Shown here: piece by piece, positions 2,318-61,604 of the stretch
Layout of the letters: every line of letters starts with the position of its first letter
How positions within the stretch are numbered: position 1 is the first letter of the stretch
Source of the DNA: Candidatus Gottesmanbacteria bacterium
GTDB lineage: Bacteria > Patescibacteriota > Microgenomatia > UBA10105 > UBA927
Assembly (NCBI GenBank): GCA_023245335.1
Contig: JAHFKK010000001.1
Span: 299,282-363,281 of the forward strand
Length of the DNA stretch: 64,000 nucleotides
Reading direction: 5' to 3'
Notes under the pieces: model-generated
What the model was told of the DNA's origin: nothing
The model's database searches: none
The model's input: only the letters and a program-made list of their open reading frames with translations
Made by a program: the position numbers and the translations under genes

Positions 2318-4534
2318 TCATTTTACGATCGCCGGTTTTTCCTGGGGATGCTGGCAGTCCAGGCACCAGTTGGTTATGCTGTCCGATATGACCTGGTGTT
2401 GTTGCATTTCTACATTATCCGTTTGACCGGGGCTTGCAAGATCATTGGTTGTTTTATCGATAGCCACAGTCTGGGTGAGATTTTCCCTCGTGGTAGGGAC
2501 GGTGCCTTTCGTAAAGTATTCAAACCGAGTCGGGCACCCTTTATCACCTGCGTTAGGATCGGGATTCGGCGGAAGGAGCCCCGTCGTCGTACAGATTTGG
2601 GCTCCCACGACGCTATCCGGCTGTTTCGGCCAGATATCCGGTTGGCCGAAAAGTGCGTGTTGCATAAGTTTATTCCAGATAGGAGCCGCTCCCGTAATAC
2701 CGGAAACTAAGTAGCTATTCATCGGATGGTTATCGTTGTTGCCGACCCAGGTGGCGATGAGGAATTGTGGCGTGTAGCCAATGGTCCAGTTGTCACGGAT
2801 ATCATTGGTGGTACCGGTTTTGACTGATACGGCATGGCCAGGGATGACAAGAGCTGAATTGGGGCCGAATTCATCCTGACGGGCGTTGTTGTCGAGAAGT
2901 ATGTGAGAAATAAGAAACGATGTTTCGGGAGATACCACACGGACTCCTGTTTGCAGAAGCTGCGACGGGATGACCTTGCCGAGGTTCGGATCCTTGTATT
3001 GTTGGAGTACCTTGCCGTCTTTGTCGACCACTTTAAGTATTGATACGAGATCGTGTCTCGTGCCGCCGTTGGCAAATACGGAAAATGCCGTCGCCATATC
3101 AGTCATGTGGACTTCGCCGCCTCCCAATGTGAGCGACAGTCCGTAGTGTGTCGGGTCTTTTAACGTGTTTAAACCGAAGGCGGAAGCAGAAGCTACCATA
3201 TCCTGTACGGTGTTGAGGTAGAGCATTTTGACGGCAGGGATATTCAAAGAATTACCCAATGCAAACCGTAATTGTACCGGACCGTGGAATTTCCCGTCAT
3301 AGTTTCTCGGGCAGTATGCAGGCTGGCCGGCAAGATTGGCAAAACATGTGGGTTCATCCAGAAACATCGTTGCAGGCGTGACGATGCGTTTTTCTAGTCC
3401 TATGCTGTAGTTAATCGGTTTGATGGAAGACCCCGGTTGGCGAAGGGCAGTCGTGACATTAAACGATCCTGATGGTGTCGCGAAATAGTCCGTAGACCCC
3501 ACCATGGCGAGTATTTCACCAGTTGAGGGATGGGTGATAAGCGCCGCTCCGTTGGATACGTCAACGGTTTTGAGCTTTGCGACTTCCGCGGCGACGGTTG
3601 CCTGCGCATAGTTTTGCAGATCAAGATCGAGAGTCGTTGTCACTTTAAGTCCGCCCCGTTCTACCAGAGCTTCGCCGTATGTATTTTCAAGCTGGTCCTT
3701 CACGTACATGACGAAATGAGGAGCCTGGATGCCGGTTTCCGGCTTATAGACCAGTGGTTCCGCAAAGGCATCGTCTGCCTGTTTTTGGGTGATGTAGTGG
3801 TCGTCGACCATACGGGTGAGCACTTCTTTTTGGCGCTGTTTTGCATATTCGGGATGGGCCCCATAAGGCGAATACAGCGTCGGGGCCTGCGGCAATCCGA
3901 CCAGAAGAGCGGCTTCGGCGAGACTGACTTGTTTAATGGGTATGCCGAAATATTTTTCTGATGCGGTTTCTATGCCCCACGCGGTCCCGCCGTACGGCAC
4001 GGAATTGAGGTACATTTCCAGAATTTTATCTTTGGAATACAGGAGTTCAACAAGAGGTGCGAGCATAAGCTCCTTCACTTTCCGCGTGATAGTGCGTTCC
4101 GGAGTCAGAAGCGCGGATTTGACGAGCTGTTGGGTGATAGTCGAACCACCCTGGAGTTTGCGGCTGACAACCGATGCCGCAATCGCGCGAAGCAGGCCCC
4201 CGATGGGGTTTATCGCACCGTGTTGATAGAAGTTTTTGTCTTCGATGGATATCGTACCCTGTTGGACGTATTTGGGCATATCGGACAGGGGAACAGGAGT
4301 ACGATTTTGGCCGACGAAGATGTCGAAAAGGAGTTTACCGTTCCGGTCGTATATTTTTGTCGCTACCGGAATATCGTACCTTCCTAAATTCGCGGGAGAC
4401 GGAAGATCCCGTAGGATAAACCAGTAGAATGCGGCGAGCATCAGAAACGGTATGCACCAAAAGATGTATGGTTTCCATGATGACGGAATGCGTGGAAGCG
4501 GCAGTTTGCCAAACGATAGTCTAGGAAAGGACAT
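2318..4534 (-). CDS. Class A penicillin-binding protein 1A (transglycosylase/transpeptidase)
   Basis: 738 aa with an N-terminal TM, EDKNFYQHGAI and QGGSTITQQL (GT51 motifs) and a transpeptidase domain. TATAAT lies 6 nt upstream of the ATG (leaderless-like). Confidence 0.9.
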   Translation of the reverse strand: MSFPRLSFGKLPLPRIPSSWKPYIFWCIPFLMLAAFYWFILRDLPSPANLGRYDIPVATKIYDRNGKLLFDIFVGQNRTPVPLSDMPKYVQQGTISIEDKNFYQHGAINPIGGLLRAIAASVVSRKLQGGSTITQQLVKSALLTPERTITRKVKELMLAPLVELLYSKDKILEMYLNSVPYGGTAWGIETASEKYFGIPIKQVSLAEAALLVGLPQAPTLYSPYGAHPEYAKQRQKEVLTRMVDDHYITQKQADDAFAEPLVYKPETGIQAPHFVMYVKDQLENTYGEALVERGGLKVTTTLDLDLQNYAQATVAAEVAKLKTVDVSNGAALITHPSTGEILAMVGSTDYFATPSGSFNVTTALRQPGSSIKPINYSIGLEKRIVTPATMFLDEPTCFANLAGQPAYCPRNYDGKFHGPVQLRFALGNSLNIPAVKMLYLNTVQDMVASASAFGLNTLKDPTHYGLSLTLGGGEVHMTDMATAFSVFANGGTRHDLVSILKVVDKDGKVLQQYKDPNLGKVIPSQLLQTGVRVVSPETSFLISHILLDNNARQDEFGPNSALVIPGHAVSVKTGTTNDIRDNWTIGYTPQFLIATWVGNNDNHPMNSYLVSGITGAAPIWNKLMQHALFGQPDIWPKQPDSVVGAQICTTTGLLPPNPDPNAGDKGCPTRFEYFTKGTVPTTRENLTQTVAIDKTTNDLASPGQTDNVEMQQHQVISDSITNWCLDCQHPQEKPAIVK

Positions 4535-20708: not shown

Positions 20709-23060
20709 ATGCCAATAGAATTTGCAGATATCATCTATCGGTTAGAAGTGTTGGGCGTGGTGTTGGTTATTTTGACTATGTGCGTGGTCGGACTTGCCGT
20801 GGTCGCGTACGTCGTTTTCCTCTTCTGGAAATATCGCGATCGCGAGAAACGATCACTTGATTATGTCCTCATGCAGATAGCTACTCCCCGTGACAATGAA
20901 ATAAAGATTGATGCCGCCGAGCAGTTATTTGCCAGTCTTTCCGCGATCCGTCACGGAGGGTTCTGGTCGTTTCTGAAGCCGCAGGAGCATATGTCGTTTG
21001 AAATCGTTGCGAAACGGGAAGATATCAGATTTTATGTGGCGGTACCCAAGCATTTGGTTGACCTCGTTGAGAAACAGATCCACGGGTCGTATCCGGGCGC
21101 TGATGTGAAGCAAGTCGATGAATACAATATTTTTAGTGAAAAGGGTAAGGTCGCATTTGCGGCACTTATTCCCAAAAATTCCGACTATCTGCCGATCCGC
21201 ACGTACCGTGATTTACCTGTTGACCCATTGTCCTCGCTTACCTCGAACCTTGCGAAGATGGGTGAGGATGAGGGGGCTGCCATACAAATCCTCATCCAGC
21301 CCGCAGACAGTAAATGGAGTAGTTTGGGTCGATCGTATATAGCCAAAACCAAAAAGAATGAAGCGAATCCTGAAAAAGCGAGTTTCAAAGTAGACCCGAA
21401 GACGCTTGAATCCATCGAACAAAAAACGTCGAAACCCGGATTTAATACCGTCATTCGTTTGGTCGTCAACGCCGCCACAAAAGAAGCCGCCGACGCGAAT
21501 CTGGAGAACCTCGAGACGTCATTTCATCAGTTCACATCTGATCATAATCATTTTTCCAAAGTGAAACATCCGTTAAAAAAGTTTTTTATGATAGATTTCG
21601 TATATCGGTATTTCCCAATTGCAAATTTCCCGTTTTTCAAGCAGTACGGCGTCCTCAACAGTGACGAGCTGGCATCAATTTATCATCTGCCGAATAAATT
21701 GATTGAGACCGCGCATATTTTTTGGCTGAATGCCAAGCGGGCTCCCGCTCCAATGCAGATTCCGTCGAGCGGGTTATTTTTGGGCGTGTCCCGGTATAGG
21801 GGCGTCGACCGGCCGATATTTGTGAGTGATGAAGACCGGAGGCGCCATCTTTATGTCATAGGGAAAACGGGTACCGGAAAATCACAACTCTTGGAAGAGT
21901 TGGTGCTACAGGACATGAGAGCGGGAAAGGGACTCGCGGTCATAGATCCGCACGGAGACCTTATCGAAGGAATACTGGAGCGCATGCCTGCCGAACGGGC
22001 AGAGGATGTCATCTATTTTGATCCTTCCGATACCGACCGTCCCGTGGGACTCAATATGATCGAGAGTCATAGTGAACAGGAGATGCATTTTGTGGCGACG
22101 TCCATCGTCGGACTCATGTACAAACTGTTCGACCCGATGAAAACCGGCATCATCGGTCCCCGATTCGAGCATGCGATACGAAATGCCATATTGACGGTAC
22201 TTCAGGCGATGTCCGGGGGTACGTTTATTGAAGTCGTTCAGGTATTACAGCGGCCTGACTTTGTGCAGGAACTTCTGCCCCGGGTGTCGGATCCTATCGT
22301 CCGCCGGTACTGGACCGATCAGATCGCCCAGACGGCGGATTTCCACAAATCCGAAGTTCTGGACTACATCGTTTCCAAATTCGGCAGATTCATTACCAAT
22401 AAACTCATGCGTAATATCATCGGACAATCACAGTCGACACTCGATTTCCGTAAAGCGATGGATGACGGCAAGATACTGCTGGTCAACCTCGCCAAAGGAA
22501 AACTTGGGGAAGAAAACAGTAACTTTTTGGGGCTTATCCTCGTGCCGAAAATATTGATTGCCGCCATGAGCAGGCAGGATATACCGGAAGAAAAGCGTCG
22601 TGATTTCTATCTCTATGTCGATGAGTTCCAAAACTTCGCCACCCCTGATTTCGCGCAAATACTTTCCGAGGCCCGGAAATACCGCTTGAACCTGATCGTC
22701 GCAAACCAATTTATCGGTCAGATGGAAGAAGAGGTAAAAAATGCGGTTTTCGGAAATGTGGGAACGCTTATCACATTCCGTATCGGAGTGACGGATGCCA
22801 ATTACATTCAGCACGAATATACACCGACGTTTAATGAGACCGATCTTATCAACATTGATAAATATAATGCCTATGTCAAAACGATTGTCCACAACGAACC
22901 GGTGAAGCCGTTTAGCATTGATCTCACGAAAGATATGTCAAAAGTTATGGAAACACAGAATCTTGAAGTGGCCAAAGCAGTGGTTCAGTTATCCCGCCTC
23001 AAATACGGGAAGCCGAGGGAACTTGTGGAAGCGGAGATTACCGAACGTGCGAGACTATAA
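20709..23060 (+). CDS. TraD/TrwB/VirD4-like type IV coupling-protein-family ATPase
   Basis: N-terminal TM helices, Walker A GKTGTGKS and Walker B LYVDEFQNF; 783 aa. Confidence 0.75.
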   Translation: MPIEFADIIYRLEVLGVVLVILTMCVVGLAVVAYVVFLFWKYRDREKRSLDYVLMQIATPRDNEIKIDAAEQLFASLSAIRHGGFWSFLKPQEHMSFEIVAKREDIRFYVAVPKHLVDLVEKQIHGSYPGADVKQVDEYNIFSEKGKVAFAALIPKNSDYLPIRTYRDLPVDPLSSLTSNLAKMGEDEGAAIQILIQPADSKWSSLGRSYIAKTKKNEANPEKASFKVDPKTLESIEQKTSKPGFNTVIRLVVNAATKEAADANLENLETSFHQFTSDHNHFSKVKHPLKKFFMIDFVYRYFPIANFPFFKQYGVLNSDELASIYHLPNKLIETAHIFWLNAKRAPAPMQIPSSGLFLGVSRYRGVDRPIFVSDEDRRRHLYVIGKTGTGKSQLLEELVLQDMRAGKGLAVIDPHGDLIEGILERMPAERAEDVIYFDPSDTDRPVGLNMIESHSEQEMHFVATSIVGLMYKLFDPMKTGIIGPRFEHAIRNAILTVLQAMSGGTFIEVVQVLQRPDFVQELLPRVSDPIVRRYWTDQIAQTADFHKSEVLDYIVSKFGRFITNKLMRNIIGQSQSTLDFRKAMDDGKILLVNLAKGKLGEENSNFLGLILVPKILIAAMSRQDIPEEKRRDFYLYVDEFQNFATPDFAQILSEARKYRLNLIVANQFIGQMEEEVKNAVFGNVGTLITFRIGVTDANYIQHEYTPTFNETDLINIDKYNAYVKTIVHNEPVKPFSIDLTKDMSKVMETQNLEVAKAVVQLSRLKYGKPRELVEAEITERARL

Positions 23061-24576: not shown

Positions 24577-24648
24577 GGGCGCGTAGCTCAGTGGTAGAGC
24601 GCTACTCTTATAAAGTAGATGTCCTTGGTCCGATCCCAAGCGCGCCCA
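24577..24648 (+). tRNA. tRNA with anticodon TAT (UAU), putative tRNA-Ile reading AUA; unusual T-loop (TCCGATC, C at position 55)
   Basis: Hand-folded cloverleaf: acceptor GGGCGCG/CGCGCCC, D arm GCTC-AGTGGTA-GAGC, anticodon stem CTACT/AGTAG with loop CTTATAA, T arm CTTGG-TCCGATC-CCAAG, discriminator A. CCA is not encoded. Confidence 0.6.
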
Positions 24649-24688
24649 CAAATAGTTGGTACCATTAACACATTAACGAAAGAAAGAA

Positions 24689-39817: not shown

Positions 39818-40756
39818 TTACCCCCCGATGCCGTAGATAATGAACATGGCGCTCGCCCCCCAGAGGATAACGGTCGTCAGAAGCGGCAGATCAGCGGTCA
39901 GTACCTGTTCCGGCGATTCCCCTTTACCATGATAGATGAGCTGCATATAGCGCATGATGCCGTACAGGATAAAAGGAATCGTAATCATCATCCATTTGCG
40001 ATCCGGGATATCCGTGACAAAATCCCCGTAGTTTTTGAAAAATAATCCCTGGCTAAGCGGCCGCTCAAGGAACGTGAAGTATGTATAGGAAATAAACGTG
40101 GAGGTGGCAAACATAGACGTATATGCATCCAATAGTTTTTCCGAATAGTGCGAAAGCGACGCGCGGGTATCGCGGGGGGACATAGCGCCGGAACCCTGGA
40201 TGAGCGTCAATTCTGCGCGGCGTTTGCCTATCGCGAGGAAGAGCGCGAGTGATAGCGCCGCGAGCGCGAGCCATATGGATATATGGAGGCCCGTAGCCGC
40301 TTCACCCGCATAGACGCGGATGACGTAGCCTGCGGTTATGACGATAATGTCTACGACCGATATATGTTTGAGGATCATGGAGTATAGATATTGCAGGATG
40401 ATGAAAAGGATCGCAAACAGGAAAAATGACGGGCCGACACTATGCGCGATGGTCAGACCGATGAGGACAAAAAAAAGTGATGTGAGAAGTGCAATCTTCA
40501 CGGGCAACTTGCCGCTTGCCACGGGCCGGAATTTTTTGAACGGGTGCCGACGGTCGGCCGGAGCGTCCAAGACGTCGTTAAAAATATAATTCGAGGAGGC
40601 GAGGAAACAGAATGCAACGAAACCGAGCACCGTGTTGAGAAACAACTCCTGACGGAACAGTTGTCCCGTAAAAAATACGGTCGTAAACAGCGCGACATTT
40701 TTCAACCATTGTCGGGGCCGCGCAGCTTTGAAAATTGCGTAAAGAAGCTGACCCAT
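39818..40756 (-). CDS. UbiA-family prenyl-phosphate phosphoribosyltransferase (decaprenyl-phosphate 5-phosphoribosyltransferase-like)
   Basis: N-terminal RPRQWLKN and NDVLDAPADRRHP, the signature of DPPR synthases. Start set to MGQLL (40756) so the RPRQW motif is retained. It overlaps the upstream GT4 gene by 55 nt. Confidence 0.7.
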   Translation of the reverse strand: MGQLLYAIFKAARPRQWLKNVALFTTVFFTGQLFRQELFLNTVLGFVAFCFLASSNYIFNDVLDAPADRRHPFKKFRPVASGKLPVKIALLTSLFFVLIGLTIAHSVGPSFFLFAILFIILQYLYSMILKHISVVDIIVITAGYVIRVYAGEAATGLHISIWLALAALSLALFLAIGKRRAELTLIQGSGAMSPRDTRASLSHYSEKLLDAYTSMFATSTFISYTYFTFLERPLSQGLFFKNYGDFVTDIPDRKWMMITIPFILYGIMRYMQLIYHGKGESPEQVLTADLPLLTTVILWGASAMFIIYGIGG

Positions 40757-41784
40757 ACGAGAAACATGGTCAACGCGACAGCAACTGCGATAAACGCGAA
40801 TACTTTGAGAGAACTCGTGACTGTGAGCGAGACCAGCCCCAGTATAGCGGACACCCCCCAGTAAAACAAGGCGATTCTGCGTTTTCCCCACCCCAAATCC
40901 ATGAGCCGGTGATGAAGGTGTCCGCGGTCCGCCCAGACCGGTGACTTCTTCGTCCCGAGACGCCGCACCAGGGTTGCCACGGCGTCCAACATGGGGATGC
41001 CCAGGACAAGGAGCGCGGTCCCGAGTTTCGCAAACGAAAGTATGCCTAAGAGCGCCAAAAAGTATCCCGCAAGCGTTTTGCCGCCGTATCCGGGCATAAT
41101 GCGCTGCGGATAGAAGTTCCACGGCAAAAAGCCAAGAAACGATCCGGTCACGATGAATGCGAGCGTCGTTACCCAGGCCTGTGACGGGTCGGATAGGCTG
41201 TAGCGGAGCGACAGTAATCCCAAAACAAATGCGGAGATTGCGACATAGCCCGGCATTTGTCCGTCAACGCCTGCTGACCATCCGATGATGTTCATGGTCC
41301 AGACAATCCAAAGAAGTGCGAAGATCTGTGGTAACCCGACGACCACGCGAAGAGCACCGATAGTCAGTGTTTGATCCCATGTCGTGAGTTGTAGTACTCC
41401 TCCCGTCAACGGGTTGGTGATAAACGGAATGACGTTACCGCTGAAAACCACAATGCACGCGACCAGTACGTTCACGGTGAGGCGTACATACGGATTGATG
41501 TCTTTTTTGTCGTCAAGTAACCCTAGGATGGTGAGTATGAGCGCGCCGACTATGATGCCTACCTGATGGGGATTTAATTGTATGGAGAAAACGATCGCTA
41601 TGACGATGCCAAAACATATGGCGAGTCCTCCGGCGCGCGGTACTATGCCCCGATGCGTGTGTGCAGGATGATATCTGTGGGTGGGGTCATCAACGAGACC
41701 AAACCGTTTTGCCAAGACAATGACGAACGGCGTTGCGAGACATGTCGCGATAAGAGCAATAGCCCACGGTGCGATAAATTGCAT
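40702..41784 (-). CDS. GT4-family polyprenyl-phosphate N-acetylhexosamine-1-phosphate transferase (WecA/MraY-like)
   Basis: Ten or more TM helices and the HLHHRL motif. Confidence 0.8.
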   Translation of the reverse strand: MQFIAPWAIALIATCLATPFVIVLAKRFGLVDDPTHRYHPAHTHRGIVPRAGGLAICFGIVIAIVFSIQLNPHQVGIIVGALILTILGLLDDKKDINPYVRLTVNVLVACIVVFSGNVIPFITNPLTGGVLQLTTWDQTLTIGALRVVVGLPQIFALLWIVWTMNIIGWSAGVDGQMPGYVAISAFVLGLLSLRYSLSDPSQAWVTTLAFIVTGSFLGFLPWNFYPQRIMPGYGGKTLAGYFLALLGILSFAKLGTALLVLGIPMLDAVATLVRRLGTKKSPVWADRGHLHHRLMDLGWGKRRIALFYWGVSAILGLVSLTVTSSLKVFAFIAVAVALTMFLVWVSFFTQFSKLRGPDNG

Positions 41785-41786
41785 AA

Positions 41787-42179
41787 TTATCCTACTAAGG
41801 TCACTATACGGATAACAAAGAGAACGCTTAAGCTTGAGACCAGAAGAGACGTCATAAAGAGTACCCGTGCGAATATGGGATGATCTGCAGCATACCGGAC
41901 GACTACCGCGATATTCGTAAGATATATGATGATTGCCACACCGATAGGAACCAGGAGGAATAGCGGTGACGATAATCGATCTTCACCCCACGGCTGACTA
42001 TACCAAATCGGTACGACCGGGGGGAGTTTGCGCCAGTTCCAAAGGATTGCGACGATGCCGATGATTCCTTGTAAAATGGCACCTGCTGATGCAGCACGGT
42101 ATTCCCACGTCCGGCGAAGCGGCGCGATGCCCTGAAGGAAACGTTCCGGTGTCGGTGTGGTAGGGAAGATAAATTTCAT
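41787..42179 (-). CDS. Small integral membrane protein (130 aa)
   Basis: Three to four hydrophobic helices. Operon position between the GT-C and GT4 genes. Confidence 0.45.
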   Translation of the reverse strand: MKFIFPTTPTPERFLQGIAPLRRTWEYRAASAGAILQGIIGIVAILWNWRKLPPVVPIWYSQPWGEDRLSSPLFLLVPIGVAIIIYLTNIAVVVRYAADHPIFARVLFMTSLLVSSLSVLFVIRIVTLVG

Positions 42180-43525
42180 AGTTTGTTTTTACGAACGGAC
42201 GTTGTCCCTGCTGACGTGCGGTAAATGACCTCAAACGATGCGTCTCCGTGCACGAGAAACGTACGCGACGGAGGAAAGACGGAAAAATCTGCTTTCATGC
42301 GTCCCGGTGTCATAAGCGCCTCACCTATATACCACGGAAACGGTGCGTTTTGCGGGTTATAGAGAAATACCTGTGAACGATTATGGGCATAATAGAGCGT
42401 CTCAAGATATATAAGCGCGTTATCCGCCATGATGACGTCAGTGTTTCTCGAAAGAGCGTTGACTTCCAGCATTGTGTTGCGAAGCGGAACTTTGGGGTGT
42501 TGCGGGGGGAACCACCAGTTGATCCACAGGACAAAAACCATGAGCACCGCTGCCGTGATCTTTTGAAACATCCGGTTTTTGATCGCATCGAGCGCCGCGA
42601 CGATCACGAGGACCTCCGCGATAGTCGATGGAATGAGATACCGGTTCACAAAAAGCGGTTTCACAAAAGATATACCAATGATAACGGCAAGCGGCAGTGC
42701 CCCGAAGAGGATAAAGAGTGACGTGCGGTTGCGGTTTTTGCGGTCCATGAGGGCAAAAAGAGCGAAGCCCGCAAGGATAAGCGAAAGATACGCCGTATAG
42801 CCCCATCCGTACCACGGCGTCCCCTCATAGCCGGTAAACATATTTCCGAGTGCAGAGAGCACAAGTTGCAGATTGACCGGGAAATACCATGAATTCCGAA
42901 ATCGGGATGACTCCGCACCAATTTTTATGAGCCAGGGGATCATCAGTACGCCGACAGCAGTAAAGGCTCGAAGTGCCGCATCATGACGGAATAAATTTTT
43001 GATACGTCGGATGTCCGGATGGGTGAAGATGAACCAGTGGACAAAAAGAGCGCCGAGGAATAGTAGAAGATACACGTGGGTGTAGAATCCCAAAACTGCG
43101 GCTACGATAAACCATTTCCATCGTTTGTTCGTATATGCATAAAGCGTCGCAGTAGCGAAGAACATATACCATGCATATGTGCGCACCTCGAACGCATAGT
43201 AGAGGATCATGGGGTTCAGGAAAAAAAAGACCGGCATATAGAACGAAAGCCAGTGCTTTTTGTACATTTGAGCCGCCCATCGGATGATGATGACTGTCGT
43301 CAGCAAAAATCCCAGAAGCGATAAGCTGCGCGCGGCAATATCCGACTCACCGAATATCCGTATCCAGTAGTGGAGGAGTGTGTAGTAAACCGGAGGTTCG
43401 AATCCCAATCTTTCGACAATAAACCGGAGCGATTGTTCAGAGGCGAGGACCGAAAACGCTTCATCCCGCCAAAAACTTTGGGTCATGTAGAGAAGCGGTG
43501 TATGGGTGAGTAATAAGTTCCACAT
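42176..43525 (-). CDS. GT-C-fold membrane glycosyltransferase (ArnT/PMT-like)
   Basis: FWRDEAFS (DE motif) near the N-terminus; polytopic. Confidence 0.65.
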   Translation of the reverse strand: MWNLLLTHTPLLYMTQSFWRDEAFSVLASEQSLRFIVERLGFEPPVYYTLLHYWIRIFGESDIAARSLSLLGFLLTTVIIIRWAAQMYKKHWLSFYMPVFFFLNPMILYYAFEVRTYAWYMFFATATLYAYTNKRWKWFIVAAVLGFYTHVYLLLFLGALFVHWFIFTHPDIRRIKNLFRHDAALRAFTAVGVLMIPWLIKIGAESSRFRNSWYFPVNLQLVLSALGNMFTGYEGTPWYGWGYTAYLSLILAGFALFALMDRKNRNRTSLFILFGALPLAVIIGISFVKPLFVNRYLIPSTIAEVLVIVAALDAIKNRMFQKITAAVLMVFVLWINWWFPPQHPKVPLRNTMLEVNALSRNTDVIMADNALIYLETLYYAHNRSQVFLYNPQNAPFPWYIGEALMTPGRMKADFSVFPPSRTFLVHGDASFEVIYRTSAGTTSVRKNKL

Positions 43526-43574
43526 AGGAAAGAAACAAGGGCATTTGCTACGCTTCTGCGCAGTCTATTAACAA

Positions 43575-45056
43575 TTATATCTTTTCCGTTACTCTGTATT
43601 CCAGCCGTTTACCCAAAAGAAGCCGAGTGTGGGCATCCAATCCCGGGAGAGCGGAGAGGAAAAATGAAATGATCGGAAGCGTGAGCCACTGAAGATAAAG
43701 AAGAGGCAATTTCCATTTGGCGTATGATGCCGGCGGGGGAGGTTTGATGCGCCAATCGATGATGAAGACTATAGCAAGGAAGATGGTAGAAAGCGTAAGT
43801 ATACCGGAGGAGATTTGTGCAAGGTTGTGTCCCAGAACAGTCCGTGCAAATACCGGGTTGACGAGTGGTGGTACGGTGCTTCCGAGCGTCAGGATAAACC
43901 AGTTCGTCGGCCATAATATATGGTGTTCCAGGAGGAGGAGTAAGCGCCGAAATCGTTCTCTCGCTTTGATTTCGGTATGAATAAAAACGTTTTGGATGAC
44001 ATACGGAATGTCGGATACGCCCCAGGCCCAGCGTTTGGCCTGTTCATACTGATTGATGAACGTATGAAAAAATCCCGTGCTTTCCGCCGCATCGACCGAT
44101 ATCGGTAAAAATATAGGAAGCGCTGATACTCGTCCGCCTTTGGCAAAATACACTTTGAAGAACATATGATAATCCTCGGGAATGACGTCGACAGACCACC
44201 CGCCTACTTCTTTGGCAGTTTTAAGAGACAGGGAATAGGTAGAGAAGTTTATAAGTCTGCCTTTTTGTGAGAGCGTTGCGAGATTCCAAATCGTGTTGAG
44301 GGTGTTGAGAAAACGATAGGGTAGTTGGATGCGCCAGATATTGTTGTAAAACATGATAGCACCCTGGTAAAAGTGATACGCACGGTCCTCATCCTTGAGA
44401 AATGTGCTGGCAAGTGCGGAGAAATATTTAGGATGCGGCAATGCGTCGGCGTCGCAGGATGTAACGGTTGTGTACTCGAGGGGAATATGTTTTGTTTTCA
44501 GGAACGCAATGATATTTTTTGAAGCCCACGCCATGTTTGAGGATTTACCGGCTATTTCACCGTTATGGAGGGTGTGTCTCGTGATGATGAAGTGAGCGAA
44601 AGCCGATGAAAATTCTTTTTTCAAAATTGCGCACGTTGCTTTGGCATCCGGATCCTTGGCCTCGGTCGCAAGAACGACTACCATTTTTGTTTTGGGGAAG
44701 TCCTGATTCGCGAGGTTAGTAAGGGTGCGACGGAGGATGTGGATGGGCTCTTTGAATTCCGGAATGATGACGACGTGCCAAAGATTTTCGAAGTGCGGAT
44801 TCGCCATTGCGAGCTTAAGCCAATCTTCCCGAACATGTGCCGAAAGCTTCGCAAATGACCGGAATGCGGAGTAAACAAGCGTCAATGATTTATAAAACCA
44901 ATAGACATCGAATGTGATGATGAGATACGCGACGGTCGCAGGGTGCCAGAACGAAAGCCAGAGCGGCATGGTGATAAGAAGCCATGAGACCGTCGGGATG
45001 GCAATTTCGAGTAACCGTTGGATTTTGTTCGGATAACGTAGGAATATCCAGCGCAT
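43575..45056 (-). CDS. Membrane-embedded GT2-family glycosyltransferase (processive-synthase-like)
   Basis: TSCDADA (DxD) and QAKRWAWG (QxxRW) with flanking TM helices. Confidence 0.75.
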   Translation of the reverse strand: MRWIFLRYPNKIQRLLEIAIPTVSWLLITMPLWLSFWHPATVAYLIITFDVYWFYKSLTLVYSAFRSFAKLSAHVREDWLKLAMANPHFENLWHVVIIPEFKEPIHILRRTLTNLANQDFPKTKMVVVLATEAKDPDAKATCAILKKEFSSAFAHFIITRHTLHNGEIAGKSSNMAWASKNIIAFLKTKHIPLEYTTVTSCDADALPHPKYFSALASTFLKDEDRAYHFYQGAIMFYNNIWRIQLPYRFLNTLNTIWNLATLSQKGRLINFSTYSLSLKTAKEVGGWSVDVIPEDYHMFFKVYFAKGGRVSALPIFLPISVDAAESTGFFHTFINQYEQAKRWAWGVSDIPYVIQNVFIHTEIKARERFRRLLLLLEHHILWPTNWFILTLGSTVPPLVNPVFARTVLGHNLAQISSGILTLSTIFLAIVFIIDWRIKPPPPASYAKWKLPLLYLQWLTLPIISFFLSALPGLDAHTRLLLGKRLEYRVTEKI

Positions 45057-45100
45057 AGTATCAAGCCAAACAATTATACTATATAGGAGTGTTCTTGCGC

Positions 45101-45880
45101 TTAAATGCCAAAGAGAGCTTTCGCGTTGGTGGTAGTCGCTTCCATAATTTCCTGTACCGGCTTTTGTTGTAGCTCAGCGAGCTTTTGGGCGATGAGCGGG
45201 ATGTATTTGGGCTCGTTACGTTCTCCGCGGTGGGGTACCGGCGTGAGATACGGGGCGTCGGTCTCCAGTACCAGCATGGAAAGCGGGATATGCGGGACGA
45301 TCATCGCAAGTTGTTTGGAATAGGTGACATTGCCGTCTATGCCGACGTAGAATCCGAGTTCCTGCGAGCTTCTAAGGTCCTGCAGGCCGCCGGAAAAGCA
45401 ATGAAGAACCCCCCGTGGTATGTTGGGTACCGTATGAAGGATAGTGAATAGATCCTCAAATGCGTCGCGACAATGGAGGATGACCGGGAGATTGTGGGTG
45501 AGCGCAAGTTTGAGCTGTTCCTCGAGTAACCGGTGTTGGACATCTTTTCTTCCTGCTGCCACCTCGCCTTTGTATTCATGGTAATCCAGGCCGCATTCGC
45601 CGATTGCGACAATCAATTTCTTGTTTTGTTCGTCCGTGAGGAGTGATTCAAGGTATGAAATATCCGGATTATGCGGTGCTTCATACGGGTGGTAGCCGAC
45701 ACCGGCAAAAATGACGCCCGGATGCACGGAGGCAAGGTGAAGAGCCGTCCTGCAGGAATTATGATCTACTCCCGGGACGACAAATTGTTTCACCCCGGCT
45801 TTTTTCGCATTGCCGATGACCATCTCCCGATCCGTATCAAAATCCGAGAAATTCAGTTGTGTGTGCGTGTCGATGAACAT
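45101..45880 (-). CDS. tatD: TatD-family metal-dependent hydrolase/DNase
   Basis: MFIDTHTQL start, then ..GECGLDYH.. motifs. Confidence 0.85.
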   Translation of the reverse strand: MFIDTHTQLNFSDFDTDREMVIGNAKKAGVKQFVVPGVDHNSCRTALHLASVHPGVIFAGVGYHPYEAPHNPDISYLESLLTDEQNKKLIVAIGECGLDYHEYKGEVAAGRKDVQHRLLEEQLKLALTHNLPVILHCRDAFEDLFTILHTVPNIPRGVLHCFSGGLQDLRSSQELGFYVGIDGNVTYSKQLAMIVPHIPLSMLVLETDAPYLTPVPHRGERNEPKYIPLIAQKLAELQQKPVQEIMEATTTNAKALFGI

Positions 45881-45882
45881 GA

Positions 45883-47340
45883 TTACGTAAGCCTTGGAAA
45901 CAAGGGTGGTTGAGATTTGATTGTCGGACCTTTAAATTGATCAAGGATTTTTTTCGCAGTTTCGGGCAGAAATGGTTTTAAAACTTGAGCAATCGATATA
46001 ATCTGATTAACAGCATTTGTTATAACAACATAGTTTGAAAGTTTTTTACTATCATCTGATAATTCTTTTTGCCACGGCCTTTCATTATTTATATATCGAT
46101 CTAGTCCAGTAACAGCACCCCAAATAAGTGAAAGCGCTTCATTAAAACGGAATGATTCAACAATCGGTTGTACATCGTTCCAAAGCGAATTGATTTCATC
46201 GGATTGGTCATTCTTAATTAATACATTATTATTCTCTGCGAGCTTAGCTACGCGGGCAATCAGGTTGCCCAATCCGTTCGCTAAGTCTGAATTATAAAGT
46301 TCCTTGAATCTCCGTTCGGAGAAATCTCCGTCGGCGGAAGAAGGAATTTCGCGCAGGAAATAATAGCGCAAGGCGTCTGCGCCGTATTTTTTGATAAGTT
46401 CAAACGGGTCGATGACGTTGCCTAAAGTTTTGGACATCTTCTGGTCGTTCACCGTGAAGTACCCGTGTACGAATATGCTTTTGGGAGTTGCGAGTCCTGC
46501 AGACAAAAGGAATGCCGGCCAATAGACCGCGTGGAAGCGGGAGATGCCTTTGCCGATGACGTGGACGTCAGCGGGCCACCATTTCTCATACTGCTTTTCG
46601 TCCCAGCCGAATCCGATGCCGGACTGATAGATGTTGAGCGCATCAAACCATACATACATGCGCTGGCTGTCATCGCCAGGTACAGGGACGCCCCAGTTTT
46701 TGGCGCGCGCGTTACTCCGGGAAATACTTATATCCTGGAGCGGCTGTTTGAGAAATGATAAAACCTCGTTTCTGCGGGTATCCGGAATGATCTTGAGTTT
46801 GTCTTTTGAGATTAGGTCAATTATCTGCTTTTGGTATTTGGATAGCCGGAAGAAATAATTTTCCTCCGACACCTTTTCGAGTTTTTTGCCGGGGTGTTCG
46901 AAACATTCGCCGTTTTCATCCAGTTCGTCGGCTGTATAAAACGTTTCGCACCCCACACAATAGAGGCCTTCATACGATTTTTTGTAGATGTCTCCGGCCT
47001 TGTCGCAGAGCTGCCATAATTTTTGGCTCGCGACGAAGTGATGTTCCTGGTCGCTTCCTTTTTGCCACACGTCAAACCGGCAACCGAGGGCGGTCGTGAG
47101 TTCCAGAAACTTTTTCGTATTGTCGTCGATGAATTTGTGTACGGGTACACCCGCCTTCTCTGCGGCCTGGACGTTTTTCAGTGCGTTTTCATCGCCGCCG
47201 GACAGGAGTAAGGTGTCTTCGCCCAAAAGCGCATGATACCGCGCGATGACATCTCCCTGTACGAATTCCAGGGCATGCCCGATATGTGGTGCGGCATTCA
47301 CGTACGGAATGGCGCACGTTATGTAGAACTTTTTGTTCAT
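45883..47340 (-). CDS. metG: Methionyl-tRNA synthetase (short form)
   Basis: PHIGHA (HIGH) and KMSKT motifs with a CxxC zinc knuckle; 485 aa. Confidence 0.9.
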   Translation of the reverse strand: MNKKFYITCAIPYVNAAPHIGHALEFVQGDVIARYHALLGEDTLLLSGGDENALKNVQAAEKAGVPVHKFIDDNTKKFLELTTALGCRFDVWQKGSDQEHHFVASQKLWQLCDKAGDIYKKSYEGLYCVGCETFYTADELDENGECFEHPGKKLEKVSEENYFFRLSKYQKQIIDLISKDKLKIIPDTRRNEVLSFLKQPLQDISISRSNARAKNWGVPVPGDDSQRMYVWFDALNIYQSGIGFGWDEKQYEKWWPADVHVIGKGISRFHAVYWPAFLLSAGLATPKSIFVHGYFTVNDQKMSKTLGNVIDPFELIKKYGADALRYYFLREIPSSADGDFSERRFKELYNSDLANGLGNLIARVAKLAENNNVLIKNDQSDEINSLWNDVQPIVESFRFNEALSLIWGAVTGLDRYINNERPWQKELSDDSKKLSNYVVITNAVNQIISIAQVLKPFLPETAKKILDQFKGPTIKSQPPLFPRLT

Positions 47341-47626: not shown

Positions 47627-47658
47627 CCAATAAAAAACCTCCCGGTTCGGGAGGTTGT
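47627..47658 (-). terminator. Strong intrinsic terminator or attenuator hairpin on the minus strand (AACCUCCCG-AAC-CGGGAGGUU + UUUUUUAUU)
   Basis: 9-bp GC-rich stem and a U-tract, upstream of the small ORF and metG. Coordinates approximate. Confidence 0.6.
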
Positions 47659-55799: not shown

Positions 55800-56630
55800 T
55801 TACGAGGAGAGAGGATAATACAACTCACTTCCGCCGAAACCCTCTTTAAATTTGGTAAATCCTTTCCACTCATGATTCTGGTTTGGCATACGCTCATCCC
55901 AGACGCCGACAAAATCTAGGGCCGTCGTGCCTCGCTTTTTGGCGAGCTTAAGTGCCTCCCAGACGAGATAGGTCGGTGCAAAGAGATGTTTACCCTCCTT
56001 TGTCGCTCCAGCAACCCAGTAGTATGCAATTTTTTGCCAGTATATGAGGAGTATGCCGGCAACCGGAGTGTCCTTTGAGGTGCGCGCAGTAAGTATGTCA
56101 GCGTGATCCGGACGGAACTTTGGCCAGAGTTTATCAAGTCCGTACGTCGTGATGGAGCCCAAAAATCCGGCAGACGTATTTTTGAGACGGATAAATGTCC
56201 GGATGTCGTCGCTGACATCTATACGGACGCCATTTTTTTGCGCCCGCCGTACGGCGCGGCGCTTTGCCTCGCTCAATCCACGAAATATGGCGTCTTCAGG
56301 ACGCGTCACATCGACACGGATAGTTTTGGTCGGTAAGAACGGATCATGGTTGACGTGTATCGCACGCGGCAGACGCCTCACCCATCGTTTGAGATCACCG
56401 GAGCTCACCCGGCTGTCCGGTTCTATCGCGAGCCGTGTTGCCTTTTCATGAGACAGTAAAGGGAGAAATGTTTTGAGGTCCGGAAGCCTGGTCACCCGCT
56501 GGACCTTGATAAGCGCTCCCATAAATGGGAATCGACGGATGTAATAATATTGCCGGTTGTGCGCGACGACTTTCCATCCCAAAGATGCGATAAACGCGGC
56601 ATAAGGTTTGGATTGTTGGATTTCCATCAT
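55800..56630 (-). CDS. FemAB-family peptidoglycan interpeptide-bridge peptidyltransferase
   Basis: C-terminal GFTKFKEGFGG, the FemABX signature. Confidence 0.7.
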   Translation of the reverse strand: MMEIQQSKPYAAFIASLGWKVVAHNRQYYYIRRFPFMGALIKVQRVTRLPDLKTFLPLLSHEKATRLAIEPDSRVSSGDLKRWVRRLPRAIHVNHDPFLPTKTIRVDVTRPEDAIFRGLSEAKRRAVRRAQKNGVRIDVSDDIRTFIRLKNTSAGFLGSITTYGLDKLWPKFRPDHADILTARTSKDTPVAGILLIYWQKIAYYWVAGATKEGKHLFAPTYLVWEALKLAKKRGTTALDFVGVWDERMPNQNHEWKGFTKFKEGFGGSELYYPLSS

Positions 56631-56646
56631 ACAAATCGTAACGTCT

Positions 56647-57624
56647 CTAGCGGGACATGAGTTTCAGTATGGTCCATCGGAGCGTATCTGCGATCGTATA
56701 CAGGCGATAGAGGAACGGATGGACAACGAGATCGTACGAGCCGACAAACTCGATGAGCGTCGGGTTAAATCCCTGTTTGAAACGATGGAACCCGAACCAG
56801 GGATCGTTGATGTCCGGATTAGGTCCCAGAGACCCCCATAGATCAAATGTCTTGTATCCTTTCGCTTTCGCCCATTTGGTGATTTCCCACAACATAAGAG
56901 TCGGTGCCATGACTTCCCTATGGGTCCGCGAGGAGGCCCCGTAGGGGTAATACACAGTCTCACCCCAGGTAAATAGAATCCACGCCGTAAGTATTTCGCC
57001 TTCGTACACGGCAGTAAAAAGGTGTGCTATCCCGGCTTTGTGGAGCATATTCCACATCTTCTCGTGATATATCCTGTTATGCGCAAAGAATCCCTGTCTG
57101 GATGTGGTTTCCTCGTTGAGCCGAAGGTAGGAAGCAAATGCTTTTGGGGAAGAATCTTCTTGTATCGTTACCTTGTGGCGCTCGGCGACCCGTAAGTTAT
57201 ATCGTGTCTTAGAGTGCATAGCGGCAAGAAGCTCATTTTCCGTCCTTGTGAGGTCCAAGATATACGTGTATTTGGTGAAAAGGGGGTGATGTGACGGGAT
57301 GATTGATAATTTTTTGAGTTCGGTTGCCGTTTTTTCGGATGTAACGGCGTTTGGTTCCAACTGGATGAATATTGCACGTTTTTCTTTTCCGATACGCGTT
57401 AGCTTTTCGATCATGCGTGTATCAGGAAGCGGTCCTTTTGGAAAGAATCCGACATACCAGGGCGTATGAGGGAGCCGGTGAAACGTAAGTTGCCAGCCGT
57501 TTACCCGTACGACTTCGATACCCATTGCTTTACGGAATTCACCCCATGCCCACGTTTGCAGCGGATGGAGAGCCCCGGCATCCCAGGATTTTTGGTCGGT
57601 GTCTATGGCAGTACGGATTGTCAT
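56647..57624 (-). CDS. FemAB-family peptidoglycan interpeptide-bridge peptidyltransferase (tandem paralog)
   Basis: GFHRFKQGFNP C-terminal signature. Confidence 0.7.
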   Translation of the reverse strand: MTIRTAIDTDQKSWDAGALHPLQTWAWGEFRKAMGIEVVRVNGWQLTFHRLPHTPWYVGFFPKGPLPDTRMIEKLTRIGKEKRAIFIQLEPNAVTSEKTATELKKLSIIPSHHPLFTKYTYILDLTRTENELLAAMHSKTRYNLRVAERHKVTIQEDSSPKAFASYLRLNEETTSRQGFFAHNRIYHEKMWNMLHKAGIAHLFTAVYEGEILTAWILFTWGETVYYPYGASSRTHREVMAPTLMLWEITKWAKAKGYKTFDLWGSLGPNPDINDPWFGFHRFKQGFNPTLIEFVGSYDLVVHPFLYRLYTIADTLRWTILKLMSR

Positions 57625-60548: not shown

Positions 60549-61604
60549 ATGCAGCAAAAATTCAAAAGAACGGTCGCGCCGAAGCTCCGAAGCGTTCTGC
60601 TTCTTTTTGTGGCGATGCTTCTCGTCGCAGGCCTTGCTATCGGGATTCGGACAGTCCGTTCGTTTACGAAAAATACCGGTTTGACGCCGGCAGCGGTTTT
60701 CGGCCTCATGTTTGATACCGGCGTTGACCTCGCTCCCATAAAGGGTCGGGTAAACGTGGCTCTATTGGGGATCGGGGGAGGCAATCACGACGGTGCTGAC
60801 CTCACGGACACCATTCTCATCCTTTCCTTTAATGAAAAGCATGATACGCTTGGGATGATTTCCGTGCCGCGAGACATATGGTCGGACTCTCTAAAAGATA
60901 AAGTAAACAGTGCCTATCATTACGGTGAGGAAAAGTCCCGCGAAGCTGGATCGGCCGCTGGTCGAAAAAAAGGCGGATTGATTCTCTCTAAAGCAATTCT
61001 ATCCGATATGGTGGGCCTGCCGATTCAGTATGGCATCGTATTTGATTTTACGAAGTTTCAGAATATCATCGATCTCGTTTCCGGCGTCACGATAGATGTG
61101 CCGGAGGCATTTACGGATTCCCAATATCCGATAACGGGGAAAGAAAAGGATATCTGTGACGGTGATCCCACATTTGCCTGCAGATACGAAACGCTTCATT
61201 TTGATAAGGGCCTACAAACTATGGATGGTGAACGGGCTTTGAAATATGTCCGGAGCCGGCATGCGGAAGGCGTCGAGGGAAATGATTTCGCGCGGGGGAG
61301 ACGGCAACAGCAAGTATTAGTTGCGCTTAAAGATCGGCTCACTTCTAAGAACACTATATGGAATCCGCGGAAATTATCGGCATTATATCGGGCGTTTGAT
61401 GATGCCACGGATGTCGATATGAATATCGCACAGCTAATGACGGTAGGGAAGCTATTTTTGCGGGTGCCACAGATCAACATTACCCGGATATCTATAGAGA
61501 ATGAGTTATACTCGCCTCCGGAAAGCTGGTACGGTGGATACGTGTTGTTGCCAAAAGACACCTTCGAGTCAATTCACGAATACGTATCATCTTTTCTTAA
61601 GTGA
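60549..61604 (+). CDS. LytR-CpsA-Psr (LCP) family cell-envelope phosphotransferase
   Basis: N-terminal TM, then TDTILILSF..ISVPRDIW LCP core. Confidence 0.8.
   Translation: MQQKFKRTVAPKLRSVLLLFVAMLLVAGLAIGIRTVRSFTKNTGLTPAAVFGLMFDTGVDLAPIKGRVNVALLGIGGGNHDGADLTDTILILSFNEKHDTLGMISVPRDIWSDSLKDKVNSAYHYGEEKSREAGSAAGRKKGGLILSKAILSDMVGLPIQYGIVFDFTKFQNIIDLVSGVTIDVPEAFTDSQYPITGKEKDICDGDPTFACRYETLHFDKGLQTMDGERALKYVRSRHAEGVEGNDFARGRRQQQVLVALKDRLTSKNTIWNPRKLSALYRAFDDATDVDMNIAQLMTVGKLFLRVPQINITRISIENELYSPPESWYGGYVLLPKDTFESIHEYVSSFLK

Follow-up and report, generated by a model that had tools for sequence, protein, structure and literature searches.

A conserved gene cluster of Candidatus Gottesmanbacteria predicted to make a lipid-linked pentofuranose for an envelope glycan

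Within a 64-kb stretch of Candidatus Gottesmanbacteria DNA (hereafter ‘the window’, meaning that whole stretch), a run of seven consecutive minus-strand open reading frames (ORFs) at 39818-47340 leads from a methionyl-tRNA synthetase gene (MetRS) to a gene of the UbiA superfamily, and its last five genes probably serve an envelope glycan for which a lipid-linked pentofuranose is made from phosphoribosyl pyrophosphate (PRPP). An earlier note, made from the letters of the window, had picked out these five ORFs, and their number, strand and coordinates are confirmed, an independent gene caller being in agreement. Throughout, what is said of gene content applies to the window and, at related loci, to flanking sequence of at most 10 kb. 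The features, from upstream to downstream, are the following.

45883-47340, minus strand: MetRS, 485 aa (Pfam)
45101-45880, minus strand: TatD-family hydrolase, 259 aa (Pfam)
43575-45056, minus strand: GT2 glycosyltransferase, predicted membrane-embedded and synthase-like, 493 aa (Pfam PF13632, motifs, Foldseek)
42176-43525, minus strand: predicted GT-C-fold glycosyltransferase, ArnT/PMT_2-like, 449 aa (AlphaFold2 model and Foldseek)
41787-42179, minus strand: small membrane protein with three transmembrane (TM) segments, probable partner subunit of the PNPT, 130 aa (fusion, conserved position)
40702-41784, minus strand: atypical membrane protein of the PNPT family (MraY/WecA/GPT superfamily), 360 aa (Pfam PF00953)
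39818-40756, minus strand: UbiA-superfamily protein, predicted polyprenyl-phosphate 5-phosphoribosyltransferase (PPPRS) of the Rv3806c type, 312 aa (NCBIfam, PDB match, residues)
40702-40756, minus strand: dual-coding overlap of the PNPT and UbiA genes, 55 nt

The same five genes, UbiA to GT2, and the 55-nt overlap were called independently on two ENA contigs by a second gene caller, and the motifs quoted in the earlier note are all present in the translations: RPRQWLKN and NDVLDAPADRR in UbiA, HLHHRL in the PNPT, and CDADA (DxD) and QAKRW (QxxRW) in the GT2 protein. What that note called ‘GT4’ is Pfam Glycos_transf_4, the MraY/WecA PNPT family, and not CAZy GT4. Taken in order from MetRS to UbiA, the first three junctions are gaps of 2, 44 and 49 nt, followed by a 4-nt overlap, a further 2-nt gap and the 55-nt overlap; the description of the five-gene cluster as joined by overlapping or abutting junctions therefore holds for three of them (the 55-nt overlap, the 2-nt gap and the 4-nt overlap) but not for GT2/GT-C, with its 49-nt gap. 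The two intergenic gaps of the run, at 45057-45100 (44 nt, TatD/GT2) and 43526-43574 (49 nt, GT2/GT-C), are possible internal promoter or ribosome-binding site regions, and a promoter scan was not above chance there.

The UbiA protein is, on well-supported sequence grounds, predicted to be a polyprenyl-phosphate 5-phosphoribosyltransferase of the kind of decaprenylphosphoryl-5-phosphoribose (DPPR) synthase, Rv3806c. It might instead be an ordinary aromatic or quinone prenyltransferase (MenA/UbiA/heme O synthase-like), as its single Pfam match, to the generic UbiA family (E = 5e-20), would allow, and as is implied by the JGI label ‘4-hydroxybenzoate polyprenyltransferase’ on several of its homologs. 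However, NCBIfam models of quinone, heme O, chlorophyll and geranylgeranylglyceryl phosphate (GGGP) prenyltransferases score it at only 16-54 bits against cut-offs of 180-420, whereas the DPPR-synthase models score it at 156-214 bits. Among the latter, the equivalog model NF008978 ‘decaprenyl-phosphate phosphoribosyltransferase’ is passed (214.4 bits, cut-off 207), and the protein lies below the cut-offs of NF008977 (205.7 vs 234) and NF008976 (155.6 vs 474). NCBI already labels the Gottesmanbacteria homologs ‘decaprenyl-phosphate phosphoribosyltransferase’.

The closest solved structure is that of Mycobacterium tuberculosis Rv3806c (PDB 8j8j, E = 2e-34), whose PRPP- and decaprenyl phosphate-binding residues are taken from its cryo-EM study (PMC10994848). 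Of these 13 residues 12 are identical in the window protein (R22, K28, Y70, N73, D77, K87, R90, Q135, Y138, K143, Y157 and K191), and the sole non-identical one, K208, is aligned to UbiA A199, with R198 adjoining. In Rv3806c, a cluster of lysines and arginines binds pyrophosphate, N73 and D77 bind Mg2+, N73 and Q135 bind ribose, and K28, Y70 and Y157 bind the 5′-phosphate, while K28, Y157 and K191 bind the polyprenyl phosphate; the 5′-phosphate residues (K28/Y70/Y157) and ribose residues (N73/Q135) are not conserved across the remaining UbiA superfamily and prenyltransferases (PMC10994848). The full set of these phosphoribose-specific residues, which set Rv3806c apart from prenyltransferases, is present in the window UbiA, and the prenyltransferase alternative is effectively refuted. 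The assignment to the DPPR-synthase type, first proposed from two motifs together with a profile comparison against Rv3806c and the UbiA families as its check, is thus borne out by the outcome of that comparison, by the structural match and by the shared residues. At 312 aa the protein has no extra domain, and in particular no fused HAD phosphatase.

The UbiA gene begins within the gene upstream of it. Its ATG is at 40756 and the PNPT stop codon ends at 40702, which places the start 55 nt within PNPT, so that the overlap spans the last 18 codons of PNPT and the first 18 of UbiA, with UbiA in the -1 frame relative to PNPT and the PNPT stop TGA embedded in the invariant W-L codons (TGG TTG A) of the RPRQWLKN motif. 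Of the 77 related loci with both a PNPT and a UbiA gene, 66 have an identical 55-nt overlap; in the others the two genes overlap by 64, 38, 20 or about 4 nt, or stand a short or longer distance apart (in L071, L073, L074, L075 and L061 the overlap is 4 nt or the genes are separate). In many loci the upstream stop is followed by no in-frame start other than this ATG, and the homologs of UbiA are 311-312 aa long in all but a few of the 120 matches listed. The overlap has an information content of 1.44 bits/nt, compared with 0.94-0.97 in its flanks, and third-position relaxation is absent within it in both reading frames. Because the overlap is so recurrent, offers in many loci a single in-frame ATG, leaves protein length constant and shows raised conservation, it is not due to chance or artefact; the possibilities of an assembly artefact, raised beforehand as a refutation, and of a mis-called start are rejected, since 66 independent assemblies share it. 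The pattern of conservation marks it as a long-standing dual-coding feature in which both frames are constrained.

Such an overlap most plausibly enforces coupled translation of the two genes, and PNPT and UbiA would then be produced in fixed proportion. A programmed -1 frameshift yielding a PNPT-UbiA fusion was also considered; no canonical X XXY YYZ slippery heptamer was seen on reading the 55 nt in the PNPT frame, and in some lineages the overlap is only 4 nt long or the genes are separate. Two close relatives are exceptions to the overlap: in one (L018:7022-7951) the PNPT frame ends 49 nt short of the UbiA start, and in the other (L064:6107-7042) the UbiA match starts late. These are probably frameshifts or assembly errors, or possibly pseudogenes.

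The PNPT that is locked to UbiA in this way is an unusual member of its family. It matches Pfam Glycos_transf_4 (PF00953, 76.8 bits, cut-off 27) and fails both the NCBIfam WecA model (TIGR02380, 100.2 bits, cut-off 326) and the MraY model (TIGR00445, 52.1 bits, cut-off 192). It keeps the DD motif (D91 and D92, both invariant), N165 and D174-G175, as well as an invariant H289-L290-H291-H292 (HLHH) in a cytoplasmic loop of the WecA-like form ‘P..D..RR..SP..DR.HLHH’; HIHH in the last cytoplasmic loop is a WecA-type motif. In both single-sequence and profile alignments to five MraY structures, its ‘MPGYGG’ aligns on the MraY ‘FMGDxGS’, and Tyr233 stands where MraY has its Mg2+-binding catalytic Asp, D265 in the Aquifex enzyme (PMC5039524); there is no acidic residue close by. 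The residue is replaced in all 74 UbiA-linked PNPT homologs, by Tyr in most and by Phe in two lineages (L076 and L078), and in DGxDG this family has A, S, K or N instead of the first Asp. Because the Mg2+-binding Asp is replaced, canonical initiating GlcNAc-1-P transfer cannot be assumed. The earlier description as a WecA/MraY-family initiating transferase thus stands as to family and as to the DD and HLHH motifs, but the initiating role is not assured. The protein may still be an enzyme, many of its active-site residues being invariant.

Immediately upstream of the PNPT gene, the 130-aa protein has three hydrophobic segments and a strongly conserved loop, LPPxVPLWYSxPWGExRL, and lacks a Pfam match; six of 29 homologs weakly match DUF1648 (best E = 3e-5). 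It is conserved in position in 67 loci, and in a Patescibacteria metagenome-assembled genome (MAG; L076) and a candidate division WWE3 genome (L078) it makes up the N-terminal part of an in-frame fusion with PNPT (hmmsearch E = 4e-19 and 1.5e-16, respectively). The fused ORFs (L076:3661-5160, 499 aa; L078:5143-6609, 488 aa) each come directly after GT2, with no GT-C between. The family comprises 680 representative clusters, and the best 150 of the 680 are all stand-alone proteins of 84-150 aa. Since it is fused to PNPT in two lineages of the Candidate Phyla Radiation (CPR), the small protein would work with PNPT and not as an independent EmrE-like flippase, and a PNPT partner subunit is its probable identity. 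For what the earlier note listed simply as a ‘small membrane protein’, the fusion evidence thus changes the reading to that of a PNPT partner. A GtrA/SMR-type flippase was among the candidates and is unsupported: there is no Pfam match to sustain it beyond the weak likeness to DUF1648, the TM segments number three and not four, and the fusion is to PNPT.

The 449-aa protein next upstream was proposed as a GT-C transferase of the ArnT/PMT kind, and this is supported at the level of fold. A profile of its family found nothing significant in the PDB by sequence, and nine of 38 homologs reach Pfam PMT_2. An AlphaFold2 model made with 38 homologs (mean pLDDT 88.6, pTM 0.89) gave ArnT as its best Foldseek match (5ezm/5f15, E = 1e-5, TMq 0.58-0.60), followed by ALG12/ALG9, STT3/PglB, Pmt4 and EmbC; the top 15 are all GT-C proteins, and all of them enzymes that use lipid-linked donors. 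An acidic pair, D21-E22, is invariant in the 38 homologs and follows the N-terminal segment in what is predicted to be the first extracytoplasmic segment, where it may correspond to the catalytic Asp of ArnT, and E43-P44-P45 is invariant or nearly so. In distant loci the positional counterparts match PMT_2 even where tblastn loses the window protein. No carbohydrate-binding C-terminal domain of the Emb/AftD kind is present.

The first of the five genes encodes a GT2 protein that matches PF13632 (Glyco_trans_2_3, 46.7 bits, cut-off 27). D135, D202-A-D204, E294-D295, Q339-xx-R342-W343 and Y487-K492 are invariant in 32 homologs, and the last of these, the C-terminal YRVTEK, may resemble the BcsA gating-loop motif FxVTxK. 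As its profile found nothing significant in the PDB by sequence, a fold comparison was needed; with a model of moderate quality (pLDDT 64.8), Foldseek returned PcManGT, BcsA and the Chlorella virus and Xenopus hyaluronan synthases (E = 1e-7 to 1e-5), and chitin synthases too; the TMq values to BcsA and hyaluronan synthase are 0.45-0.48, and the TM part is poorly modelled. The invariant motifs and these matches bear out the claim of a synthase-like protein, again at fold level.

A scan of species-representative genomes gave 79 related loci, and the order MetRS-TatD-GT2-GT-C-small protein-PNPT-UbiA is kept in roughly 60 of them, in Gottesmanbacteria and Microgenomates, while the core of GT-C, small protein, PNPT and UbiA persists to about 44% UbiA identity. 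That the five genes form one cluster is therefore upheld by a deeply conserved order, and the conserved unit reaches beyond them, upstream to TatD and MetRS. Median identity to the window proteins, taken over 44 complete loci, is 68% for GT2, 68% for UbiA, 66% for MetRS, 63% for PNPT, 60% for TatD, 49% for GT-C and 38% for the small protein. As the medians for GT2, UbiA and PNPT are comparable to that for MetRS, strong purifying selection seems to act on them, and by this measure the predicted glycan enzymes GT2 and UbiA are as constrained as a tRNA synthetase. Many of these loci (L004, L007, L012 and about 40 further ones) are CPR-type loci in MAG records titled ‘uncultured Gammaproteobacteria’ or ‘uncultured Pseudomonadales’, from binchicken co-assemblies, and the titles look like placeholder or wrong taxonomy.

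The upstream neighbours TatD and MetRS lie on the same strand and probably belong to the same transcription unit, but they are not evidently part of a glycan pathway. We infer co-transcription of the run from spacing and synteny alone. A terminator-like hairpin occurs at 47636-47656 on the minus strand (9-bp stem, six G-C pairs, T-run), just upstream of a 93-aa ORF whose sequence overlaps the start of MetRS; here the preceding transcription unit may end and that from MetRS to UbiA, in consequence, begin.

We consider it reasonably probable that these genes together form a conserved envelope-glycan cluster of Gottesmanbacteria and related Microgenomates, in which a lipid-linked ribose-type sugar is made and added to a surface glycan. 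In the first, well-supported step, UbiA would move 5-phosphoribose from PRPP to polyprenyl phosphate at the cytoplasmic face, giving polyprenyl-P-ribofuranose-5-P. The 5-phosphate would then be removed and the lipid-linked pentofuranose, most simply ribofuranose, flipped outward, steps for which no enzyme is seen in the cluster. Outside the membrane, the ArnT-like GT-C is presumed to use this polyprenyl-P-pentose donor, as gene linkage suggests, and to put the pentofuranose on a glycan or other surface acceptor. The BcsA/hyaluronan synthase-like GT2 would make and export the backbone polymer to be decorated. The part of the PNPT-like protein and its 3-TM partner is the least certain: they may supply a polyprenyl-linked primer, or run a divergent reaction.

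Several observations weigh against this pathway. Counts in promoter and terminator scans for operon boundaries were at chance level. Tyr233 in place of the catalytic Asp makes the PNPT doubtful, by its sequence, as a primer synthase. The window GT-C itself has no Pfam match and no clear first TM helix, and its donor is not readable from its fold, as ArnT-like folds use many polyprenyl-P-sugars; in the GT2 model, the TM regions are of low confidence (pLDDT <50). Pfam maps of the cluster and of nearly the whole 64-kb window show no PAP2/HAD 5-phosphatase, no flippase of the SMR/GtrA type or EmrE/ArnE-like 4-TM kind, and no DprE1-like FAD oxidase, DprE2-like reductase or GalE-like epimerase. TatD was considered as the missing phosphatase for its adjacency alone; nothing speaks in its favour.

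The missing epimerase bears directly on the identity of the sugar, for which the earlier note had predicted an arabinan- or ribofuranan-like polymer. DprE1/DprE2-like enzymes elsewhere in the genome might epimerise the lipid-linked sugar to polyprenyl-P-arabinofuranose, in which case the WecA-like enzyme would prime a wall polymer, D-arabinan or arabinogalactan-like, and the GT-C would build it from this donor. The co-occurrence of an Rv3806c-type enzyme, a GT-C whose structural matches include EmbC, a PNPT and a GT2 is indeed as in arabinogalactan synthesis. In a distant Microgenomates-type MAG (L075:8962-15388), moreover, UbiA is followed directly on the same strand by an RmlA-like NTP-transferase, two NAD-dependent epimerase/dehydratases (short-chain dehydrogenase/reductase type), Glf (UDP-galactopyranose mutase), a GT2 and a 496-aa protein without a Pfam match, a gene set that looks like galactofuranose/deoxyhexose chemistry alongside pentofuranose and that is reminiscent of the rhamnose-galactofuranan part of arabinogalactan. 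An LCP ligase gene in the window would also fit. Yet the search for DprE1 (FAD-oxidase/ALO type) and DprE2 found neither in the conserved cluster or the 64-kb window, nor in the examined flanks of the distant loci, and the arabinose reading is without support in this sequence. The GT-C is closer to ArnT and ALG enzymes, EmbC ranking 15th (E = 0.025, TMq 0.46), and it lacks the carbohydrate-binding domain of Emb and AftD. Documented non-actinobacterial arabinofuranose systems keep DprE1/DprE2 homologs beside their PPPRS genes, and outside Actinobacteria the known systems attach pentofuranoses as single side chains (PMC11127046); for a pentose polymer, whether arabinan- or ribofuranan-like, we see no supporting evidence. 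We therefore judge an arabinan pathway unlikely, and because no epimerase is found in the cluster or the window, polyprenyl-P-ribofuranose is the default donor.

The LCP (LytR_cpsA_psr) ligase gene lies at 60549-61604 on the plus strand, 15 kb from the cluster, and is a candidate for the final step for the cluster product. LCP-family enzymes join polyprenyl-PP-linked wall glycopolymers to peptidoglycan, and this gene, taken with the gene set of L075, may indicate that the cluster makes a glycan associated with the wall.

The distant loci also raise the question of whether the genes are merely neighbours and serve no single pathway, with the PPPRS product feeding another acceptor system (Wzy_C-type ligases, pilin glycosylation) and the GT-C and GT2 using hexose donors on an unrelated glycan. 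In three loci of distant CPR, including WWE3 and Saccharibacteria, UbiA is followed not by GT-C but by a Wzy_C (O-antigen ligase-like) membrane protein (L076:9732-11048, L078:9636-10919 and L079:8901-10820, the last also with TPR repeats), which suggests a different acceptor-side enzyme in these lineages; in L076 and L078, 1.4-2.8 kb of opposite-strand genes part UbiA from GT2-PNPT. The silence of the GT-C fold as to its donor is compatible with such a division. Against it stand the GT-C-small protein-PNPT-UbiA order of roughly 60 genomes, kept to about 44% identity, the PMT_2-type GT-C that still occupies this place in loci where the window protein is no longer recognisable by sequence, the tight or overlapping junctions, and the absence from the cluster of a polyprenyl-P-hexose synthase (GtrB/DPM1-type). 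We give separate pathways a low probability, and prefer a single one that includes pentofuranose transfer.

A bolder proposal concerns the PNPT. The Tyr in place of Asp, the DUF1648-like module paired with or fused to it, and the 55-nt lock to the phosphoribosyltransferase gene together raise the idea that it is a new enzyme acting on the PPPRS product and not a WecA-type initiator: the 5-phosphate of polyprenyl-P-ribose-5-P might be consumed or cleaved off by it, or the lipid might be passed by it from one active site to the other, so that it would replace the missing phosphatase or flippase steps. The cluster would then build a lineage-wide, probably essential pentofuranose-containing wall polymer of Microgenomates, a functional analogue of arabinogalactan. 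We regard this as improbable. If the PNPT is active, it would change assumptions on catalysis in a superfamily in which the replaced residue is considered essential (MraY, WecA, GPT).

Elsewhere in the window there are further genes related to the envelope or to conjugation, namely a DUF8128 protein with weak TrwB/TraG-like coupling-protein similarity (20709-23060, plus strand), tandem FemAB-family peptidyltransferases (55800-57624, minus strand) and a class A penicillin-binding protein (2318-4534). A tRNA-Ile with anticodon TAT (UAU) is called at 24577-24649 on the plus strand by ARAGORN and has an Rfam match; in most bacteria AUA is read by a lysidine-modified CAU tRNA.

Much of bacterial diversity belongs to the CPR/Patescibacteria, whose envelope chemistry is almost wholly obscure. 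The cluster predicts that Gottesmanbacteria and related Microgenomates invest in a PRPP-derived, lipid-linked pentofuranose glycan, and it offers a testable handle on their surface, which presumably contacts host cells, by way of its sugar composition, of antibodies or lectins, or of compounds that inhibit Rv3806c-type enzymes. Our literature search returned no paper joining CPR/Patescibacteria with decaprenyl or phosphoribosyltransferase, and in the CPR papers listed neither DprE1 nor UbiA was met. The earlier note had placed the pathway outside its usual phylogenetic home, which is right relative to Actinobacteria, but the pathway is already on record in some Gram-negative bacteria and NCBI already names the Gottesmanbacteria homologs.

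Comparison with known enzymes places each component near, and yet apart from, a characterised family. With ArnT (GT83) and PMT_2-type GT-C enzymes, the window GT-C has in common the best structural match, the N-terminal acidic DE, the E-P-P motif and the PMT_2 matches of nine of its 38 homologs, but it shares only about 12% identity with ArnT, is shorter, lacks a clear first TM helix and has no sequence match to a solved structure. The GT2 shares the D, DxD, ED and QxxRW motifs and a structural match with processive GT2 synthases (BcsA, hyaluronan and chitin synthases) and with PcManGT, but unlike the BcsA-type synthases it has no PilZ or other regulatory domain, and its gating-loop-like motif stands at the extreme C-terminus. 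The PNPT resembles WecA/TagO, MraY and the eukaryotic GPT (DPAGT1) in its Glycos_transf_4 domain, DD, N165, D174-G175 and WecA-like loop, and differs in the change from Asp to Tyr or Phe, the altered DGxDG, scores far below the equivalog cut-offs and its DUF1648-like 3-TM partner.

As a system, the cluster has an older analogue in the decaprenyl-phospho-arabinose (DPA)/arabinan pathway of mycobacteria and corynebacteria, which comprises the UbiA protein Rv3806c, Rv3807c, DprE1/DprE2, Rv3789 and the Emb/Aft GT-C enzymes, with WecA and GlfT for the arabinogalactan core. The first enzyme is of the same type, as its 12 of 13 shared substrate-binding residues attest; the logic of a lipid-linked pentofuranose donor for a GT-C outside the membrane is also the same, and the enzyme is accompanied by a PNPT and a GT2 and, elsewhere in the window, by an LCP ligase. 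In contrast, neither DprE1/DprE2 nor a PAP2 phosphatase like Rv3807c nor a GtrA/SMR protein was found in the window, the GT-C, which is ArnT-like, is small at 449 aa and devoid of carbohydrate-binding domains, the GT2 is predicted to be a membrane-embedded synthase and not a soluble GlfT type, the active site of the PNPT is non-canonical, and the organism belongs to the CPR and is presumed monoderm.

The closest known systems are the three-component extracytoplasmic pentofuranose systems exemplified by ORF15-ORF14-ORF12 of Citrobacter youngae O1/O2, which consist of a PPPRS, a small flippase and a GT-C (GT136), which add pentofuranoses extracytoplasmically and which, where an epimerase is absent, add ribofuranose (Kelly et al. 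2024, PNAS, PMC11127046). Common to these and the window cluster is the linkage of an Rv3806c-type PPPRS, with its PRPP-derived donor, to an ArnT-like GT-C; in the window the two genes are 1.4 kb apart on one strand, and their linkage is kept in roughly 60 loci. The window synthase differs in having no fused HAD phosphoribose-phosphatase domain, nor does the cluster hold a separate phosphatase, and in place of an EmrE/ArnE-like 4-TM flippase there is the lone small protein, 3-TM, weakly DUF1648-like and fused to PNPT elsewhere. The window cluster adds, in turn, an atypical PNPT and a synthase-type GT2, and it stands beside housekeeping genes and is conserved like MetRS, for which reasons it looks like a core envelope function and not a serotype-diversifying add-on. 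The individual annotations are thus not new, and the type of pathway has been published for mycobacteria and some Gram-negative bacteria; what appears undescribed is the set of accessory parts, the conserved dual-coding overlap and the Asp-less PNPT, and with them the PPPRS plus GT-C pathway would extend, differently equipped, to a new major lineage.

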